A stretch of 7,995 bases of DNA from a virus. Taxonomy: Duplodnaviria > Heunggongvirae > Uroviricota > Caudoviricetes. Below are positions 1-7,995 of this stretch, in pieces. The DNA lies in IMG/VR virus record IMGVR_UViG_2740892422_000008, one strand, 5' to 3'. Within the stretch, counting starts at the first letter, position 1. Every line of letters starts with the position of its first letter. The notes beneath the pieces are model-generated. The model searched no databases. It saw only the letters and a list, made by a program, of their open reading frames with translations, and was not told the DNA's origin. A program made the position numbers and the translations under genes.

Positions 1-1236
1 CTACGATAACCGCGCATTCAACATAGCTACCTGTTCGTCGTTCATGTCATCAATCCACATACCGTAAATTTCATACACCATCTGCGCAGTTTCATGCCCC
101 ATCTGGCTGGCTATAAATGCCGGGTTCGCTCCTGCCGTCAACAGCCAGCAGGCAAAAGTATGTCGCGTATGGTACGGATTACGGCGGCGAATACCAGCAC
201 GTTTTACTGCTGCATTCCATCTCGCACCCAAACTGCTTACCGAGTAATAAGGTTTCTGTTTTCCGTTACACATCCTGGGCATGAAAACAAAATGCAGTTT
301 TTGCTTTTCAGTTCTGCCGTACTCCCGATGATAAAAAGTGATTTCGCTTTTGCGATGATGCCCGGTCAGTTTGTATTGCTCCTTCAGTGCTTCAAGAGCT
401 GGCTGTAGTAGTGTTACCGTCCGGATCCCCGCATTTGTTTTTGGGGGACCGAACATATCAAGTATCGTCAGGTTTCTTCTGACATTCACAATTCCCTTCT
501 CGAAATCCACATCCTCCCACGCCAGAGCTGCCAGTTCCCCGTGACGAAGCCCGGAGTAAACGGCAAATTTCCACAAGTTCTGGCTCTGTCCTTTTTCACT
601 TTCCATTAATGCATTGAATTCTGTTTTAGATAACGGGTCAGGCTTTATTCTGTTTCGCTGTAATTTTTTTACTCCTTCAAATGGTTTGGTTGATATAAAT
701 CCCGACTGATACGCAAAACGTAACAACGAACAGAGCAGGGCGATATAGTTATCAACTGTGCGCACGGTTCTTCCTTTTTTGTTGGTTCTTGGATTATCCA
801 GGTAAAGCGTTTCTCCATGCAGCAGTTCATTCCGGTAGTTTAAGATATCGCTATAACGAATATGCGATATCGGGGTACTCTCACAAATTATTATCCTGAG
901 TGTTTTTAATTGTGATTTCGTTTTCTTCATTGTGTTTGTTGTTAACTCTGTCTCTTTAATTTTTGTCCAGATATCACAAAGCTCCCCGAACGTTTTTATG
1001 ACCCTCGTTGTCACCATTTTTGCCCCAGTGCTGGACTGGGGAAAACGTCTTAAATACTCAAATTCACCGGAATTGATTTCATGAACTATCAACGCTCTTA
1101 AATTCCCGGCTTTTTTAATGTTACTGTTAGTAACCTCCCAGCCTTTCAATGTTTCCCGACATCGTTTTCCTCGAAACATGAACCAGATGCGAATGTATTT
1201 ACCTCGAATCTCGACACCTGTTGGTAATTTAGACAT
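1..1236 (-). CDS. intR: Tyrosine-type site-specific integrase, Rac prophage IntR-like (411 aa, complete; stop codon at 1-3)
   Basis: Full-length minus-strand ORF with ATG at 1234-1236. The translation matches Rac IntR as I recall it (MSKLPTGVEIRG...). C-terminal catalytic signature of tyrosine recombinases is visible (H-x-x-R in NPYHTRHTF, tyrosine in the VYEIYGMW region). Start sits 1 nt from the xis stop, the usual xis-int arrangement. Confidence 0.92.
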   Translation of the reverse strand: MSKLPTGVEIRGKYIRIWFMFRGKRCRETLKGWEVTNSNIKKAGNLRALIVHEINSGEFEYLRRFPQSSTGAKMVTTRVIKTFGELCDIWTKIKETELTTNTMKKTKSQLKTLRIIICESTPISHIRYSDILNYRNELLHGETLYLDNPRTNKKGRTVRTVDNYIALLCSLLRFAYQSGFISTKPFEGVKKLQRNRIKPDPLSKTEFNALMESEKGQSQNLWKFAVYSGLRHGELAALAWEDVDFEKGIVNVRRNLTILDMFGPPKTNAGIRTVTLLQPALEALKEQYKLTGHHRKSEITFYHREYGRTEKQKLHFVFMPRMCNGKQKPYYSVSSLGARWNAAVKRAGIRRRNPYHTRHTFACWLLTAGANPAFIASQMGHETAQMVYEIYGMWIDDMNDEQVAMLNARLS

Positions 1237-1237
1237 A

Positions 1238-1453
1238 TCATGAGTCTTTGATAAACTGATTTATCTTTGGATAGTTGTACCAGATAATCCCTCGCTTACT
1301 GTCTGGTTTCCCTAAAGGAGATACTCGTTTGAAGTGGAAGCCTTCCACCCAACAGTTCTGGCGGTATGCTTCAATTTGTCTGGCCCCCAGACCAGTGCGA
1401 AGCATCAGGCCGTATTCAACCATCCACTCTTCATTAAAGATTACTTGTGCCAT
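1238..1453 (-). CDS. xisR: Excisionase-like protein (Rac XisR/YdaQ-like), 71 aa
   Basis: ORF immediately upstream of and co-oriented with int. I chose the ATG at 1451-1453 ([15 protein letters not shown]...) because it is preceded by GAGGTG at about 6 nt spacing; the track start at 1477 is a TTG extension. Sequence matches my recollection of K-12 YdaQ. Confidence 0.8.
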
Positions 1454-1504
1454 CGCATCACCTCTGGCAGGCGCCAATGTTAGACTGAAATTGACGCCCG
1501 ATGT

Positions 1505-1520
1505 TGATTATTAATAATCA
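1505..1520. promoter_or_regulatory. Perfect 16-bp AT-rich palindrome TGATTATTAATAATCA in the ydaC-xis spacer (candidate dimeric regulator binding site)
   Basis: Exact dyad symmetry read directly from the sequence, centred 52-67 bp upstream of the xis start codon. Confidence 0.3.
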
Positions 1521-1552
1521 GCTATGAAGTTTTAATTTGAATACAATGCAAT

Positions 1553-1753
1553 TCACGACGACTGAAGTTTCTCGCAATTAAAATTTATCAGTTTTACTTT
1601 CTGCTCTCTGGAAATGCCTGCTTCTTTTTTACCTGAGAGCATTTTTTCGCATTCTGATTTGGTTAATTTTGTTTTTGAGTACCTTGTCCAGTTAGTAGGA
1701 GTGCCACCTTCCTTTTCAATAGTGGCGGTAATTTTATACATGAACACCTCCAT
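1553..1753 (-). CDS. ydaC: YdaC-like small prophage protein of unknown function
   Basis: Minus-strand ORF (…MEVFMYKITATIEKEGGTPTNWTRYSKTKLTKSECEK…) resembling Rac YdaC from memory. Start is ambiguous: ATG at 1753 (66 aa), ATG at 1741 (62 aa, preceded by GGAGG at 5 nt spacing), or ATG at 1813 (86 aa, overlaps ralR by 80 nt). The 3' end of ralR overlaps the 5' region. Confidence 0.65.
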   Translation of the reverse strand: MEVFMYKITATIEKEGGTPTNWTRYSKTKLTKSECEKMLSGKKEAGISREQKVKLINFNCEKLQSS

Positions 1754-1928
1754 TATTATTTCCAGTGGTTCGTTTATTCCATCGTTCGAGTGCTTCTTTT
1801 TCACTTCCACCATAGCCGGTTCGGGATTCGCATCCGTTACACTTCGCGCGGTAATATCCTGAAATGGCTTTCACCGTTACTGATGGACAACCACAAAAAG
1901 GGCATGGTTTGACTTTTTCATACCGCAT
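1734..1928 (-). CDS. ralR: RalR (Lar) restriction-alleviation protein / type I toxin DNase, 64 aa
   Basis: MRYEKVKPCPFCGCPSVTVKAISGYYRAKCNGCESRTGYGGSEKEALERWNKRTTGNNNGGVHV matches my recollection of K-12 RalR. Two CxxC pairs (CPFCGC … CNGC) form a zinc-ribbon-like motif. The track start at 1943 adds 5 aa; the K-12-like start is the ATG at 1928. Confidence 0.85.
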   Translation of the reverse strand: MRYEKVKPCPFCGCPSVTVKAISGYYRAKCNGCESRTGYGGSEKEALERWNKRTTGNNNGGVHV

Positions 1929-1991
1929 TGTCTTTTCTCTCATAAAATAAAATTTTGTGATGGCGGTGAGGCTACACCGCCAAAGTAAATA

Positions 1992-3044
1992 TCAGGAGCC
2001 GATATATTCTGGTTTCATATCTGTCAGTGTCGTTTTATACGCCTCATATAATTCACCCAGATGTGGCCGGGCAGCATTCAGCGTATTTTCCAGAGCAGTA
2101 AATTTTTGTTCTGCTTCTGGATCACCTGAAGAAGGTAGGTCATTTATCATCTTCTCGATACGGGCAATAGCATTGAGACGGTGATGACGCTGAACCACTT
2201 TTCCTTTAAGTTCCGTATAGAGAGCGCCAAGTGTATTTTTATGATCTTCCACTTCCTGGCGAAGTGCTGTTGTTTCCCCGGTGCTTTGTGCCTGCTCAAT
2301 ACGTTCACGGAAAGCATCGATCCAGTTTTCCCCGGCATCCTGCTCAATAATTGTTGTTTCACGTTCCGCGCGGCAAGCGGAAGTGTTTTTATGTTCCTGA
2401 ACCGGATTAATGATTTTTTCCTGTGGCTCGTCCAGTTCGTCCCTGGTGTACACTCCAAGAATCACTTCGGGGCAATAAAGGCGCGCCCAGCGTTTCAGCG
2501 CCAGATAGGCAAGCTGCTGGCGAGGATCGTCGGCCCATAGCGTTGAATTACGTGTTCTGGCCTGCGCCAGAAGTAATTCCAGTACGCGTGGTTTACTTTC
2601 GCCGCGTAGTGTTGCCTGGACACGAACACCGATCCCGTTTTCATCGGCCAGCTTCCAGCCAGGTACACGATATTCTTTCCCTTTGTCGCTCTTCCTGATT
2701 TCAAATTTCCCGATAATTTTTTCCCACGGCCCGAACCAGTCATATTCAATACGCCCGGTTAGCGGCCCACGAGTACTGATTACGGCATTAACCAGTTGCG
2801 CTTCATATCCGAGCACACCATTCACAACGAAAGTTTTCTGAGCTACTGCGTAAGGGTTCATTTGCCACTGCATCGCCTGCATGGTGATGGCCATGCAGTC
2901 TGATGGATTTCCCCGGAGGTGTTCCGGTACAGTAGCCATGCCGGAAGCCATTACCTGGGAAAATGTCTGAATTGCAGCCAGGGACTGAGGGCTGAAAACC
3001 GCAACATTAGAGTTAATATTTTCTTGTTGAGTTAATTCGTTCAT
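1992..3044 (-). CDS. Phage single-strand annealing protein, Bet/Redbeta-like (RecT/Redbeta superfamily), 350 aa, with a ~130-aa helical C-terminal extension
   Basis: ATG at 3042-3044 preceded by GAGGAAGG, 11 nt downstream of the exonuclease stop (translationally coupled pair). Core motifs align by eye to lambda Bet: GNPSDCMAITMQAMQWQMNPY…VNGVLGYE versus GDASDAQFIALLIVANQYGLNPW…VVGVDGW, and KRWARLYCPEVILGVYTRDELDE versus KRMLRHKAMIQCARLAFGFAGIYDKDEAE. It is not the K-12 RecT sequence as I recall it. Confidence 0.72.
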   Translation of the reverse strand: MNELTQQENINSNVAVFSPQSLAAIQTFSQVMASGMATVPEHLRGNPSDCMAITMQAMQWQMNPYAVAQKTFVVNGVLGYEAQLVNAVISTRGPLTGRIEYDWFGPWEKIIGKFEIRKSDKGKEYRVPGWKLADENGIGVRVQATLRGESKPRVLELLLAQARTRNSTLWADDPRQQLAYLALKRWARLYCPEVILGVYTRDELDEPQEKIINPVQEHKNTSACRAERETTIIEQDAGENWIDAFRERIEQAQSTGETTALRQEVEDHKNTLGALYTELKGKVVQRHHRLNAIARIEKMINDLPSSGDPEAEQKFTALENTLNAARPHLGELYEAYKTTLTDMKPEYIGS

Positions 3045-3055
3045 TGTGTCCTTCC

Positions 3056-6000
3056 TCAGATGCTCAGTGCTTCAAGACGACGAAGATCAAAGTCGTTTAA
3101 TTCGTCGGTATAACTTTCGGTAATCGGTGCTGGCCAGTTGTTTGTCTCCAGGGCTTCGTTTATCTGGCGTAGCGTCCGGCGATATTCCTGTCGACCAAGT
3201 TCCAGGAGTTCCTGCGAGGCTTCCACGACTGCCACCCAGTGATAGCCAGCATCTTTGTTGACGAAGATCCAGAAAAATTTGTCCAGATTTGCCACATCGC
3301 AATACATTGCTGCGCTGAGGTGATAATCACGCTCAATAATTTCACGGTGCAGGCGATCTTTCAGTCGTTCCTGTCGCACATAACCGAGGCTGACTGACTT
3401 CACGTCGGCGCAAATGCTTTCGTATGGCAGCCGGATTTCGATATCAGGACGGACCCTGATTTCCAGCCCGGTTTCTTCATCAAACCCGAAATAGCTGATT
3501 TCAGATTTGCGATCCGGGTGGTTGAGTAGCCTTGCTGCATCAGTATTGTTTTGCAGTGCAGCGTGAATATTTTTTGCCTGTTCATACATATCTGAACTGA
3601 TAAACGTTTTCCCGGCGTTTTCTTCTTGCTGGCGTTTTTGCCAGTCCTCCAGGGTAACCAGTTCCGGGCGGATTTTCCGAGCGATTTCGGTTAATTGCTC
3701 TTTCGTGCCACTGATGTTGTAAGGCAAAGATTTAGCACGTTCTTTTTTCGCCAGTTCTGGATCTACAGTTTCAATTTGCTCCAGAAGTTGCTCCCGTGTT
3801 CCACTGGTTTTCAACAGAGGAGGGAGGTTTGCATTGTATTCTCTAATGCAGGCTTTCATTGCCGATGCAGTATGTTTCTCCTCCTCCGGAATACGCCGGA
3901 ATTCCACCGGAAGCGAACCGTAAAGGATGCCTGTTTCTTCGGCTCCAGCACTTACAGACAGTGGCTGTATAAGAGTGCTGTTGTAGCTTTCGATCCACTC
4001 TTTCATCTGCTCTGGTGTCATCAGTGCTGGCAGACTGGCATTGTGTTTTTTAATGATGGCGATCAGTTCGCTAGAAGTAGTAACCACATATTCAGGAACT
4101 GGTACCGGAATGGCATATTCATCAGCGAATTTATCCGTTTCCAGAACATAGCTGTGAATGATCCGCCCACGCAGCAGTGCATCACTTTCCTCGTTCGGAA
4201 TAGTTCCGGCAATGTGCCGTCCGTGGTAATACATCAGGCTGATACGGGCATCCTTCAGCATCGTGCTGCTTATTCCGTTGGCGGAGTGATAAACCTCGTT
4301 CGGGAGGTTTTCATAGCGGCCAGGCTCGAAATATGACGGCCACATGATTTCAGTTGCTACAGGAGCTGACGCTTCACCAGTTTCATCACTGCAATCACGA
4401 TGCGGATCGCTGCCAGCATTCTCATTGTGCGGATGTTCAGCGCCTTCCATTTCCACCGGATCTTTTTCCTTAGCTTCAACCTGATTCTCTTCATCGAATG
4501 TTTCCTGGTATGTTGCGTCGCCCGTCACCGCCCCACAGTCAGGGCAGTTATCTCCGCCAGTCTGACCGCAGGCATTGCAGACTATTTCCGGTTCCTGTTG
4601 CACTACTGGCTCAGGTTGTTTCACATCCGGGCTGGTTTTTTCCGTTTCTGGCTGGTTCTGGTACACAGAATCGCGAGTCTGGATCCCCTTAACCCATTTC
4701 GGATCGTTCGGGTCGCTAATTCCGTCAACAAATTCACCACGTGATGCAGCAAGCAATTTATCGGCATCGACAGGATTTTTTGATGGAATGTTTTTCCGGG
4801 CTTCATGGAGTTCTGCCCGCAGTTCCTGATATTTCGCATCAACAGAATTTACCGGTGACTGAGCATCCAGCGGCTGCGTGTCCTGATGATGTTTAGTTGC
4901 GTCCGGTTCCATTGTTTCAGCCTCTCCCTGTTCATCTGCCGTTGTTCCAGATGGTTGCGGTTTTTCTTCATCATCCTGTTTTCCTTCTTCTGTTACTCGC
5001 TGCGGCATCGGGGCAGAGGAGCGACCGCAGGCAATATCCACGATTTCCGGATCAGGGTTGGCATGATCGGTTTCAGTCAGTACTTTGTTCAGATATTCAG
5101 TGACGTGCGCGGGGGTGACCTCGATCCCAATTGGTGCTTCTTTTACGGACGCAACCACGATGGCGCGGGAATAATCCAGCCCGCCAGGCATGGTGATGAA
5201 TTTGTCGCGGAAAACAGAAAAGGGCGGTTTATTTTCAGCGATAATTTCCTCAATGCGTTTAGCGTGTGCCGGATGAAGGTTATAGATGTCCAGATCCATT
5301 GAACGGGCCAGTACGCCAGTGGCTACGTCGCGCGCCAGTGACGTCAGATCGTGTACGAAACCTTCGCCGCGATCGGTGAGGTTTCCGCCGCCAGCATTAG
5401 CACCGGAAGCCGTGCGAGTGATGTGTGAAACACGATTACCCTTCATCCACTCTTTTGTCAGCAGTCCTCGATCGGTGTAGTCAGCGTTCAGGTATGCTTC
5501 GAAAAAAGCAGTTATCAGTCCCAGGTTTGAATTACCAGGATTAGGGAAAACTTTGTCAGTGTCACGAACCAGTTTGTGGAGTTCGCGAATTTCCAGCGGG
5601 GCGAGCAGGCTGGTTTTGTGGGAAACAGCCAGGGCAGTAACAGCCGGTAGTTCTTCAGCCCGAGCAATGTGTAATGCCTGGAGTCCGTCGCGTGAAACGT
5701 GCGTTACCGGTTTTTCGCTGCCGTGTTGAGCAAGCCAACGAATGGGCAGTTCCTGGCCAGAAATTGGGAGTAGCATATTCTCCTCAATCTCAGTCATGTC
5801 TTCGCCGTTGACGTTGGTATTGCCTTGATAGTGAGCGTTGTCTGGTGCTGCTCCCGGTTTTAGTTCCCATGTCATGGAGTCTTTGCTGAGTTGATAGCGT
5901 TCACTCCAGGTAAAATCGATCTCACCTTCAGCGGGCAGGTCATTAACGACAGGAAAATTCGTGGCAACAGCTTTAAAATAGCTGCTCAGTTTTTTACCTG

Positions 6001-6127
6001 ACTTAACGATCAGGTAGTCCAGAGTGGCACAGGTCGATTCAAAATCGTCACTTGCCCACAGGACGACGTCAGGTTCACCGGATGATTTTTTCGCTTTCCG
6101 TAACAGGAAGAGTGGTTTTGTGCTCAT
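3056..6127 (-). CDS. recE: Exodeoxyribonuclease VIII (RecE-family 5'-3' dsDNA exonuclease), 1023 aa; N-terminal ~585 aa K-12 RecE-like, C-terminal PD-(D/E)XK domain divergent with a repeat insertion
   Basis: ATG at 6125-6127 with GAGGT upstream. N-terminus [26 protein letters not shown]… matches K-12 RecE from memory. The C-terminal domain keeps RecE-type motifs (YH…GIS.S.L.D; IRVRPDIE…ADVK matching the RPD…DVK catalytic core) but is otherwise divergent. Confidence 0.88.
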
Positions 6128-6199
6128 TGTTTTTTAACCTCAACTCAGATTAAAATTCGTTTTGTTCAGTGAATGATCTTGCCGGATACACACTGTTCA

Positions 6200-6222
6200 T
6201 AGCCTGCGCCATACGCAGGCTA
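6200..6222. other. Perfect 9-bp stem / 5-nt loop hairpin in the racC-recE intergenic spacer
   Basis: TAGCCTGCG ccata CGCAGGCTA. Followed on the plus strand by TTTCTTTC, but not by a U-tract on the minus (gene) strand. Confidence 0.3.
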
Positions 6223-6228
6223 TTTCTT

Positions 6229-6504
6229 TCAGATTTCACCTTTTAATTTCATTGCAATCAGAGTTGCCAGAAATCCGGCTTTTTTTTCTGCGGGCAGATT
6301 CTTTCCGATATGCACCAGGCTCATTTTTTTGACACCTTCGTGAAGTGTTTTAACGTTGCCTGATGGACCGTCGATATCAACTACAGTGAATGGGGTTTCT
6401 TTATTTTCTGTTTTAATCACGTAGCCAATACGCTTTCCTTCCAGATTAACTTCGTGAACAATGTCATCAGTAGTTACAACAGTGGCTTCATAACTGGTAA
6501 TCAT
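6229..6504 (-). CDS. racC: RacC prophage protein, 91 aa
   Basis: MITSYEATVVTTDDIVHEVNLEGKRIGYVIKTENKETPFTVVDIDGPSGNVKTL… matches K-12 RacC from memory. ATG at 6502-6504 is preceded by AAGGAG; the track start at 6552 is an upstream extension. Confidence 0.88.
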   Translation of the reverse strand: MITSYEATVVTTDDIVHEVNLEGKRIGYVIKTENKETPFTVVDIDGPSGNVKTLHEGVKKMSLVHIGKNLPAEKKAGFLATLIAMKLKGEI

Positions 6505-6578
6505 GTTTTTCTCCTTAATTAAGGTTGAGCGAATCCCTGCCATTGCTGGCATAAATTCAGTTTCGCATAGTCAGTTAA

Positions 6579-6749
6579 TTAAAGTTCGTGTGCCATCTGG
6601 TCTTTTTCGGCACATATTTCACTACAATATTTTTTCATTTCCGTCGTTGGGATAACTCCACGCATGAAATGAAGTGGTCTTTTAATGCTTTTGCTTTCTT
6701 TAACTTCTTTATCGCAAAGGTGGTAAGCACATTTTATTTTCTTAGTCAT
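6579..6749 (-). CDS. ydaE: YdaE-like small Cys4 zinc-binding protein, 56 aa (absent from the ORF track, below its size cut-off)
   Basis: Manual translation of the minus strand gives [56 protein letters not shown], stop TAA at 6579-6581. Cys pairs C7/C12 and C42/C46. Its ATG (6747-6749) overlaps the kilR stop as ATGA, indicating translational coupling. Position between kilR and racC matches the Rac gene order. Confidence 0.8.
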   Translation of the reverse strand: MTKKIKCAYHLCDKEVKESKSIKRPLHFMRGVIPTTEMKKYCSEICAEKDQMAHEL

Positions 6750-6970
6750 CACCATGACTCCGCCTTTACAGGTAAACCATCACGACCGAGGAAGACTTTA
6801 ATCATGCAGTCAGTAATGCATGTTTTTGTGGTCAGGTTACGAATATAAAGCTTTCGCTTTTTAATATTGTTTGCCGAGGCAATATATGTCCGGCCTTCAT
6901 GAAGAACATAATCGCCAGGAGTCACACACTGACGTGGTATTTCATCAGTTCCGAAGTGATGTGCAATCAT
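6749..6970 (-). CDS. kilR: KilR, Rac prophage cell-division (FtsZ) inhibitor, 73 aa
   Basis: [73 protein letters not shown] matches K-12 KilR from memory. ATG at 6968-6970 is preceded by GGAG at ~7 nt; the track start at 6982 adds 4 aa without a good RBS. Confidence 0.9.
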
Positions 6971-7141
6971 AATTATCTCCATTTTTACAAATGAACTTTG
7001 TTGATGCGGTGCCTGGTGCCTCCAGGTGACTGCAACCAGTTAACAATTACAGTCGGCTTTCCCACCCAAACCAATAAGGACTAACATGACTTTTAACTGT
7101 GCCACGTGCGCTTAGCCGCATTCACCGCATCACAAAACTCA

Positions 7142-7193
7142 CTTTAAAAAGGGCGGACATCAGCCGAACTTCAAGAAAAAAACTGATGCCGCC
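7142..7193 (-). terminator. Candidate intrinsic terminator on the minus strand, upstream of kilR
   Basis: Inverted repeat GGCGG(a)CATCAG (7152-7163) / CTGATGCCGCC (7183-7193): 11 bp with one bulged base and a 19-nt loop. On the minus-strand transcript it is followed directly by CUUUUUAAAGU (plus 7141-7151). No U-tract follows it on the plus strand. Confidence 0.35.
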
Positions 7194-7411
7194 AGGACTA
7201 CACACAGCAATGTCGTTATTTACAACCGGAGGCGCACTCCCACCATTTAAATTTAACAGACAAGACCGACTCTTTATGGATATCGGAAATGCGCCTTCGT
7301 GTTGTGCCCGGTTTTATTTCACCACCTCCGGGCTTCGGTGGTCTCGGCTATACCCCTACAGCGAGAGCTTGTGTTAACATTTCAATACCCTTACAGTTGA
7401 GAGTTATTGAT

Positions 7412-7900
7412 ATGTTGGATATATTTACTCCATTGTTGAAACTTTTTGCTAACGAGCCACTCGAAAGACTTATGTATACGATTATCATTTTTGGTCTCAC
7501 TCTCTGGCTGATACCGAAAGAGTTTACTGTCGCATTCAATGCTTATACTGAAATACCTTGGCTCTTTCAGATTATCGTTTTTGCCTTTTCTTTCGTGGTC
7601 GCCATTTCCTTCTCAAGATTGCGAGCACATATTCAAAAGCATTATTCATTACTACCAGAGCAACGAGTATTGCTTCGTTTATCTGAGAAAGAAATCGCTG
7701 TATTTAAAGATTTCCTTAAAACAGGAAATCTTATTATCACTTCTCCTTGCCGTAACCCGGTTATGAAAAAATTAGAACGGAAGGGCATCATTCAACATCA
7801 GAGTGATAGCGCAAACTGTTCTTATTATCTCGTCACCGAAAAATACTCCCATTTTATGAAGTTATTCTGGAACAGCAGGAGTAGACGTTTTAATCGTTAG
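7412..7900 (+). CDS. sieB: SieB superinfection exclusion protein, 162 aa, two predicted N-terminal transmembrane helices
   Basis: ATG at 7412 (MLDIFTPLLKLFANEPLERLMYTIIIFGLTLWLIPKEF…), stop TAG at 7898-7900. Matches Rac SieB from memory. Hydrophobic segments at about aa 21-36 and 48-67. The track start at 7289 is a non-ATG upstream extension. Confidence 0.88.
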   Translation: MLDIFTPLLKLFANEPLERLMYTIIIFGLTLWLIPKEFTVAFNAYTEIPWLFQIIVFAFSFVVAISFSRLRAHIQKHYSLLPEQRVLLRLSEKEIAVFKDFLKTGNLIITSPCRNPVMKKLERKGIIQHQSDSANCSYYLVTEKYSHFMKLFWNSRSRRFNR

Positions 7901-7902
7901 CT

Positions 7903-7925
7903 GGTGATGCTGCCAACTTACTGAT
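7903..7925 (+). repeat. IS1 left terminal inverted repeat (IRL, ~23 bp)
   Basis: GGTGATGCTGCCAACTTACTGAT, the canonical IS1 IRL. The matching IRR lies outside the window. Confidence 0.85.
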
Positions 7926-7957
7926 TTAGTGTATGATGGTGTTTTTGAGGTGCTCCA

Positions 7958-7995
7958 GTGGCTTCTGTTTCTATCAGCTGTCCCTCCTGTTCAGC
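7958..7995 (+). CDS. insA: IS1 InsA transposition regulator, 5' fragment (GTG start; continues beyond the window)
   Basis: GTG at 7958 followed by codons for ASVSISCPSCS…, the known InsA N-terminus. Only 12 codons are inside the window. Confidence 0.8.
   Translation, partial: MASVSISCPSCS

Follow-up and report, generated by a model that had tools for sequence, protein, structure and literature searches.

Near the right end of the stretch of DNA analyzed here (7,995 nucleotides of the Caudoviricetes record IMGVR_UViG_2740892422_000008, hereafter the window) lies an intact copy of sieB, the superinfection exclusion gene of the Rac prophage of Escherichia coli, adjoined at its 3' end by an IS1 insertion. 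The identity and intactness of this Rac sieB are practically beyond doubt. Taken as a whole, the evidence makes it likely that the gene is still linked to its own promoter and encodes an abortive-infection protein of the SieB type, and the claim that this copy gives its host a measurable anti-phage phenotype falls somewhat short of an even chance. The features on which the argument depends are the following:

7349..7380, plus strand: inferred sieB promoter, which aligns, by homology only, with the annotated sieB promoter of phage P22 (BK000583)
7353-7361 and 7388-7396, plus strand: direct repeat pair CCCCTACAG and CCCTTACAG, whose starts lie 35 bp apart and which flanks the RNA start and the inferred promoter
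7412..7900, plus strand: sieB coding sequence (Rac-type SieB), with ATG at 7412, TAG at 7898-7900 and 162 codons plus the stop
7469..7519, plus strand: hydrophobic (membrane) helix 1, residues 20-36, predicted by hydropathy and by an AlphaFold helix at residues 17-33 with a predicted local distance difference test score (pLDDT) of ~95
7472..7474, plus strand: Met21 codon, at which a shorter Esc-like product (7472..7900) may start in frame, proposed from family conservation
7553..7615, plus strand: hydrophobic (membrane) helix 2, residues 48-68, predicted by a hydropathy peak of 2.2-2.5 and an AlphaFold helix at residues 51-78
7655..7867, plus strand: predicted cytoplasmic C-terminal domain of winged-helix-like fold, residues 82-152
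7897..7902, minus strand: final sense codon (Ser) plus stop codon of ydaF, a convergent gene whose remaining sequence is split off by IS1
7903..7995, plus strand: left end of IS1 (terminal inverted repeat), with the insA GTG start at 7958 (offset 56), running off the window

Identity and integrity of the sieB gene

The open reading frame (ORF) that starts at 7412 is a member of the SieB family and not a chance ORF. Its product matches the Pfam family PF14163 (SieB) over residues 21-160 with 109.4 bits (E 1.5e-31), the curated cut-off of that family being 26 bits, and PHROG 6399, described as 'SieB superinfection exclusion', over residues 1-162 (E 9e-70). A single substitution, Val4 in K-12 to Ile4 in the window, separates it from the 162-amino acid (aa) SieB of the E. 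coli K-12 Rac prophage (b1353, NP_415870; 99% identity), and the gene carries its name in the annotation of the RefSeq relatives. Orthologues in Citrobacter, Yersinia and other genera are full length as well (162-167 aa) at 69-76% identity, which argues for constraint on the SieB protein. This branch of the SieB family is a small one: among 1.84 billion representative proteins searched exhaustively with HMMER, only 38 clusters reached E <= 0.001. No NCBIfam model matches the window SieB, and the defence models of PADLOC-DB 2.0 gave 0 families at E <= 1, a result that shows SieB to be missing from that catalogue and says nothing against a defence role. Among Rac prophage genes the window sieB is, in short, an ordinary one, already known by name and annotation.

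A longer gene model of 203 aa, beginning at the in-frame ATG at 7289, was considered and rejected. This model is used in some phage records, among them ones of ~38 kb, and in a protein cluster with 1,724 members. Support for the ATG at 7289 is lacking because the starts of the family align at 7412 and 7289 lies upstream of the position that corresponds to the P22 RNA start (about 7387), and the 203-aa start is hence probably an over-extended annotation. The record of phage vB_EcoS-673R7 (6613-7224) is among those in which sieB is called with the 203-aa start; it also names ydaF 'head-DNA stabilization protein D', which looks mis-annotated. Many partial or chimeric products, 93-100% identical to part of SieB only and in some cases exceeding the matched part, are also present in the protein database, as would be expected if the gene is often disrupted in E. 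coli assemblies or if contigs end within it.

Predicted architecture of the SieB product

In the AlphaFold model of the window SieB, a confident one (pLDDT 88), a short helix at the N terminus precedes a membrane hairpin of two helices and a winged-helix-like cytoplasmic domain, and the basic part of the protein that lies behind the helices bears a net charge of +12. From these features the product is predicted to be an inner-membrane protein with both its N and C termini in the cytoplasm, and the model suggests that its C-terminal domain may be winged-helix-like, a fold defined by a helix-turn-helix and a beta-hairpin wing. According to hydropathy, the succession of two N-terminal helices and a soluble C-terminal domain is common to the SieB proteins of Rac, lambda and P22.

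The first-pass annotation of this DNA had described sieB as full length, as retaining both predicted membrane helices and as adjoining a mobile element, and all three descriptions are borne out here: its 162 codons agree with the length of K-12 b1353 and of the orthologues in other genera, the topology check, run with hydropathy and the AlphaFold model, recovers both helices, and IS1 is present from 7903 onwards.

A conserved DNA block and probable promoter upstream of sieB

The DNA preceding sieB can be aligned across Rac, lambda and P22 as a block extending from approximately -90 to -15 and, between Rac and P22, its identity amounts to 60%, compared with 27% over the 70 bases with which the coding part begins. 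In this alignment the hexamer TAACAT (7375-7380) corresponds to the -10 region of P22 and the mapped P22 sieB RNA start falls at about 7387 of the window, which would give a leader of ~25 nt. The direct repeats that surround these elements share the consensus CCCYTACAG, with 2 matches observed against 0.08 expected by chance, and the pair occurs once, just upstream of sieB and with the same 35-bp spacing, in every fetched locus with an uninterrupted upstream region, those of lambda and P22 included. Given the conserved block, the mapped promoter and RNA start of P22 and the repeat pair, the window sieB appears, on sequence grounds, to keep its native promoter.

A hairpin-like sequence, CACCTCCGGGCTTCGGTGG (~7322-7345, plus strand), precedes the CCCYTACAG pair, and this arrangement is kept in Rac, lambda and P22. 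The conservation of hairpin and repeats is seen although the SieB proteins share only 20-27% identity. A scan for consensus promoters upstream of the ATG gave nothing convincing and missed the promoter inferred by homology. The start codon lies within the best consensus site, TTGAGA-17-TATATT (7397-7425), and the number of sites, 3 found against 2.2 expected, does not rise above chance; this site was not used further. No terminator-like sites were found.

A putative internal start and the question of antisense control

The scheme described for the P22 locus comprises SieB, Esc and an antisense RNA (sas) by which translation is switched from SieB to Esc, with antisense RNA control in operation (PMC10002423), and some of its elements can be sought in the window. 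All family members compared (27/27) have a methionine in the column of Met21 or two columns on, the background frequency of methionine being 2.8%, and the start of P22 Esc, which is Met25 of P22 SieB, aligns two columns past Met21. No clear ribosome-binding site precedes 7472, and likewise none is evident before P22 esc.

On the opposite strand, no promoter-like sites were found between 6900 and 7995. The only minus-strand RNA signal considered for an antisense role is a DicF-like match, which lies upstream of the inferred sieB RNA start. This match (7151-7206, minus strand; 39.1 bits, E 7e-6) scores below the Rfam gathering score of 48; it is located in the kilR-sieB spacer, on the strand of kilR, and coincides with the annotated K-12 small RNA kilS (b4833), for which no literature match was found. 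An STnc100-like match (6997-7135, minus strand) is also below threshold. The literature searched contained no description of the membrane hairpin and winged-helix layout, the invariant internal methionine or the promoter repeats.

Relationship to the SieB proteins of lambda and P22

When 50,697 phage records were searched with tblastn, the only hits were three Rac-like phages of ~38 kb, with a sieB of 99% identity; lambda and P22 were not retrieved, so that kinship to these two had to rest on Pfam, pairwise BLASTP and fold comparison. Lambda SieB and P22 SieB match PF14163 with 103.5 and 101.4 bits, respectively. In pairwise BLASTP, the window protein and lambda SieB share 27% identity along 150 residues (E 8e-14), and the similarity to P22 SieB, with ~20% identity, is not significant. 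Among viral predicted structures a single match reaches E <= 1e-3, namely a P22 protein of 195 aa (E 7e-4) that bears the description 'initial portion of N operon' and whose size and location would fit the sieB ORF. The position of the gene is also shared, since in Rac, lambda and P22 alike sieB lies inside the early-left region and reads against its operon: between kilR and ydaF in Rac, between ral/orf28 and N in lambda, and between ral and gene 24 in P22, all of these neighbours being on the minus strand. Judged by these comparisons, membership of the family is solid and the kinship to the SieB proteins that have been studied experimentally is distant.

Lambda SieB, an unannotated ORF at 34482..35036 of J02459, resembles the window protein in the NEPLER-MY motif before helix 1 and has a similar upstream block with the CCCYTACAG pair. 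It differs in having a linker after helix 2 that is longer by ~20 residues, and in being flanked by N and ral instead of ydaF and kilR. Exclusion activity of lambda SieB was reportedly described by Ranade and Poteete in 1993, and none was found reported for the Rac protein in the literature searched. P22 SieB has the same layout of two helices and a C-terminal part, a promoter block and RNA start that align with 7349-7387, and an in-frame methionine, the first residue of Esc, where helix 1 starts. Unlike the window protein, it is 192 aa long and the net charge of its C-terminal part is +1, as opposed to +12. The SieB phenotype, Esc and the antisense RNA have been demonstrated for P22 only.

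The RexA/RexB system of lambda also provides an abortive exclusion expressed from the prophage, in which a membrane protein is involved and the infected cell is arrested (PMC6379469). It is, however, a functional analogue and not a relative of SieB: two proteins are needed to make up the system, and no relation in sequence or fold was found.

The IS1 insertion at the sieB-ydaF junction

The last 93 positions of the window (7903-7995) agree at 93/93 bases with the left ends of IS1A elements (768 bp) annotated in three genomes, and the segment is highly repetitive, matching a median of 11 places per genome. The insertion begins 2 nt past the sieB stop codon. In uninterrupted relatives, the 3' ends of ydaF and sieB overlap by 4 nt and, when this overlap is considered together with a base-by-base reading of the junction, it follows that IS1 cuts ydaF in its last codon and spares sieB, the native 3' flank of which it replaces. 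The IS1 copies seen in relatives have generated target duplications of 8-9 bp. If a 9-bp duplication of 7894-7902 (TCGTTAGCT) is present here, it would include both stop codons, and both ORFs would therefore stay complete.

The exact sieB-IS1 junction has 0 matches among the GTDB representative genomes and is found in one piece in no complete E. coli genome searched. The contigs that encode the exact SieB protein all have an uninterrupted ydaF, and the junction was not found in them. Separate IS1 insertions were nevertheless observed in other strains: after base 6987 of the window, which is 5 nt ahead of the kilR start, in JX21CE35; after 7384, between the inferred sieB -10 region and the RNA start, in H1; and after 7817, inside sieB, in 573. 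These are independent insertions in the kilR-sieB-ydaF interval, and each of the copies has its own 8-9 bp target duplication. Insertions in the kilR-ydaF interval may be selected for blocking transcription into the toxic kilR gene. The shared orientation of the IS1 copies near sieB was not used, as it is an ascertainment artefact of a search that joins same-strand pieces.

The Rac left arm in the window and in K-12

The remainder of the window corresponds to the left arm of Rac. Over positions 1..7902 it differs from the Rac left arm of E. coli RM10740 by 2 bases, and similarity to uninterrupted Rac ends at 7902. The minus strand carries, in order, intR, xisR, a DUF1187 gene, ralR, recT, recE, a racC-like gene, ydaE and kilR, followed by sieB on the plus strand, and the left-arm ORFs are all intact. 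The label of an otherwise cryptic region in the first-pass annotation goes beyond what the window shows; a sieB of 99% identity is also carried by the phage records of ~38 kb. At near identity, the sieB region is present in ~1,370 of the 5,426 complete E. coli genomes, that is, in about a quarter of them.

K-12 Rac sieB has the same neighbours, kilR and ydaF, and the same length of 162 aa, and it is distinguished from the window copy by a 3' end that overlaps an uninterrupted ydaF and by a different recE/recT variant. In the kilR-sieB spacer and the gene itself (6983-7902), just 3 of 920 bases are not those of K-12, and the promoter blocks of the two are identical. Across the adjacent segment that contains the racC-like gene, ydaE and kilR (6229-6982), 54 of 754 bases differ, and a mosaic boundary relative to K-12 is located at ~6982/6983. 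The recombination module (1992-6127, minus strand) encodes a RecT of 350 aa and a RecE of 1023 aa, versus 269 and 866 aa in K-12, and both recE/recT variants are found beside an identical SieB protein. A match to the RalA antitoxin small RNA (1557-1735, plus strand; 212.7 bits, above the gathering score) lies opposite the ralR toxin gene (1734-1943, minus strand), and the RalR/RalA type I toxin-antitoxin pair of Rac appears to be present and intact.

Anti-phage function and alternative interpretations

The P22 SieB system aborts superinfecting P22-like phages midway in the lytic cycle (PMC10883804), and the exclusion has been assigned by P22 genetics to the SieB polypeptide (PMC10002423). By analogy with this system, it seems reasonable to postulate that the window sieB, as a resident Rac-type prophage gene still joined to its own promoter region, would supply its lysogen with an abortive-infection protein. 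Such a protein might sense a product that certain lambdoid phages make in the middle of their lytic cycle, probably through the winged-helix domain, and respond with a shutdown of cellular synthesis, most plausibly brought about by a disturbance of the membrane through its membrane and N-terminal part. Full-length SieB may in turn be restrained by a truncated form that begins in frame at Met21, as it is by Esc in P22. Expression of sieB would probably be very low, and protection would likely be limited to a few phages without an escape function of their own.

Several observations weigh against a working exclusion function for this copy. The experiments concern the SieB proteins of P22 and lambda, which are only 20-27% identical to the window protein, and no report of a phenotype for Rac SieB was found in the literature searched. 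K-12 is the standard permissive host of lambdoid and T phages, and any exclusion must hence be narrow. Data obtained with K-12 apply to the window sieB because of the 3 differences in 920 bases and the identical promoter block. In the S6 Table of PMC7553319, which includes RNA sequencing of wild-type BW25113, sieB is listed with 0.72 and 0.43 transcripts per million, like the silent operons in the same table, compared with ~79 for racR. As a weak negative, the main text of that work, a genome-wide phage-resistance screen, names lit of e14 and does not name sieB (PMC7553319). Low expression is, on the other hand, compatible with the function of a toxic abortive-infection protein. The general statement in the first-pass annotation that SieB of lambdoid phages aborts superinfecting phages holds for P22 (PMC10883804). 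Its expectation that this copy probably still provides an anti-phage phenotype is plausible from membership of the SieB family and is not established, given distant homologues, low mRNA in K-12 and the lack of a reported effect. A broad or strong SieB phenotype is unlikely.

The same observations invite the reading that sieB is an intact but silent passenger of a recently shared prophage arm and gives the host no protection against phages. Since the 7.9-kb arm differs by only 2 bases from that of other E. coli strains, the intactness of the gene says little on selection. Together with the near-background sieB mRNA of K-12 and the absence of a reported phenotype, the many truncated or chimeric sieB products in the protein database and the IS1 copies that split the gene in strain 573 or its promoter in strain H1 without obvious cost are all in keeping with a silent gene. 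Against this stand the full-length orthologues that persist at 69-76% identity in Citrobacter, Yersinia and other genera, the retention of gene, position and promoter block by lambda, P22 and Rac in spite of a protein identity of 20-27%, and the fact that toxic abortive-infection proteins are usually expressed at a low level, and we consider the silent gene somewhat unlikely. It could also be argued that the locus is mainly regulatory, the protein being secondary, and that transcription from the sieB promoter collides with early-left transcription and damps the toxic kilR and recET. The placement of sieB in Rac, lambda and P22, in each case antisense to the early-left operon, the better conservation of the upstream DNA block than of the coding sequence and the antisense RNA control at the P22 locus (PMC10002423) are congruent with this idea. 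The two-helix and winged-helix architecture is conserved, however, across distant family members, P22 genetics credit the SieB polypeptide with exclusion (PMC10002423), and the very low transcription of sieB in K-12 implies little interference, all of which makes a mainly regulatory locus very improbable.

A further possibility is that the relevant event is the insertion of IS1, the polarity of which would insulate kilR-racC-recE-recT-ralR from the repressor-controlled early-left promoter and leave sieB as a bystander. IS1 is polar in either orientation, and the insertion has ydaF on one side and the kilR part of the operon on the other; independent IS1 copies occur elsewhere in the kilR-ydaF interval, including one that lies 5 nt before kilR begins. 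The toxicity of KilR is known (PMC5700373), and a kil::IS2 strain of lambda is listed in PMC3961180. Conversely, IS1 is very abundant in the searched genomes (median of 11 matching places per genome), the right side lies beyond the window, where the remaining prophage may be deleted or rearranged, and such an event is in any case compatible with a functional sieB; we regard as unlikely that it is the insertion, and not sieB, that matters here.

The preferred reading, that of an intact, promoter-linked Rac sieB encoding a SieB-type abortive-infection protein, can be extended into a more detailed and frankly speculative one. SieB would then be a single-gene abortive-infection module, a membrane-anchored winged-helix sensor restrained by a shorter version of itself that is translated from the universally conserved methionine opening helix 1; the CCCYTACAG pair at 35 bp would be a shared control element; and IS1 would have entered within 9 bp that hold both stop codons, so that sieB and ydaF could survive and the toxic kilR-recET arm would be cut from its promoter. 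That all of these elements hold jointly is quite unlikely.

The finding of this gene in itself matters little, as sieB is named, routinely annotated and common in E. coli. Its modest value resides in the predicted hairpin and winged-helix layout, the invariant internal methionine and the conserved promoter repeats, which provide concrete handles on the SieB family.
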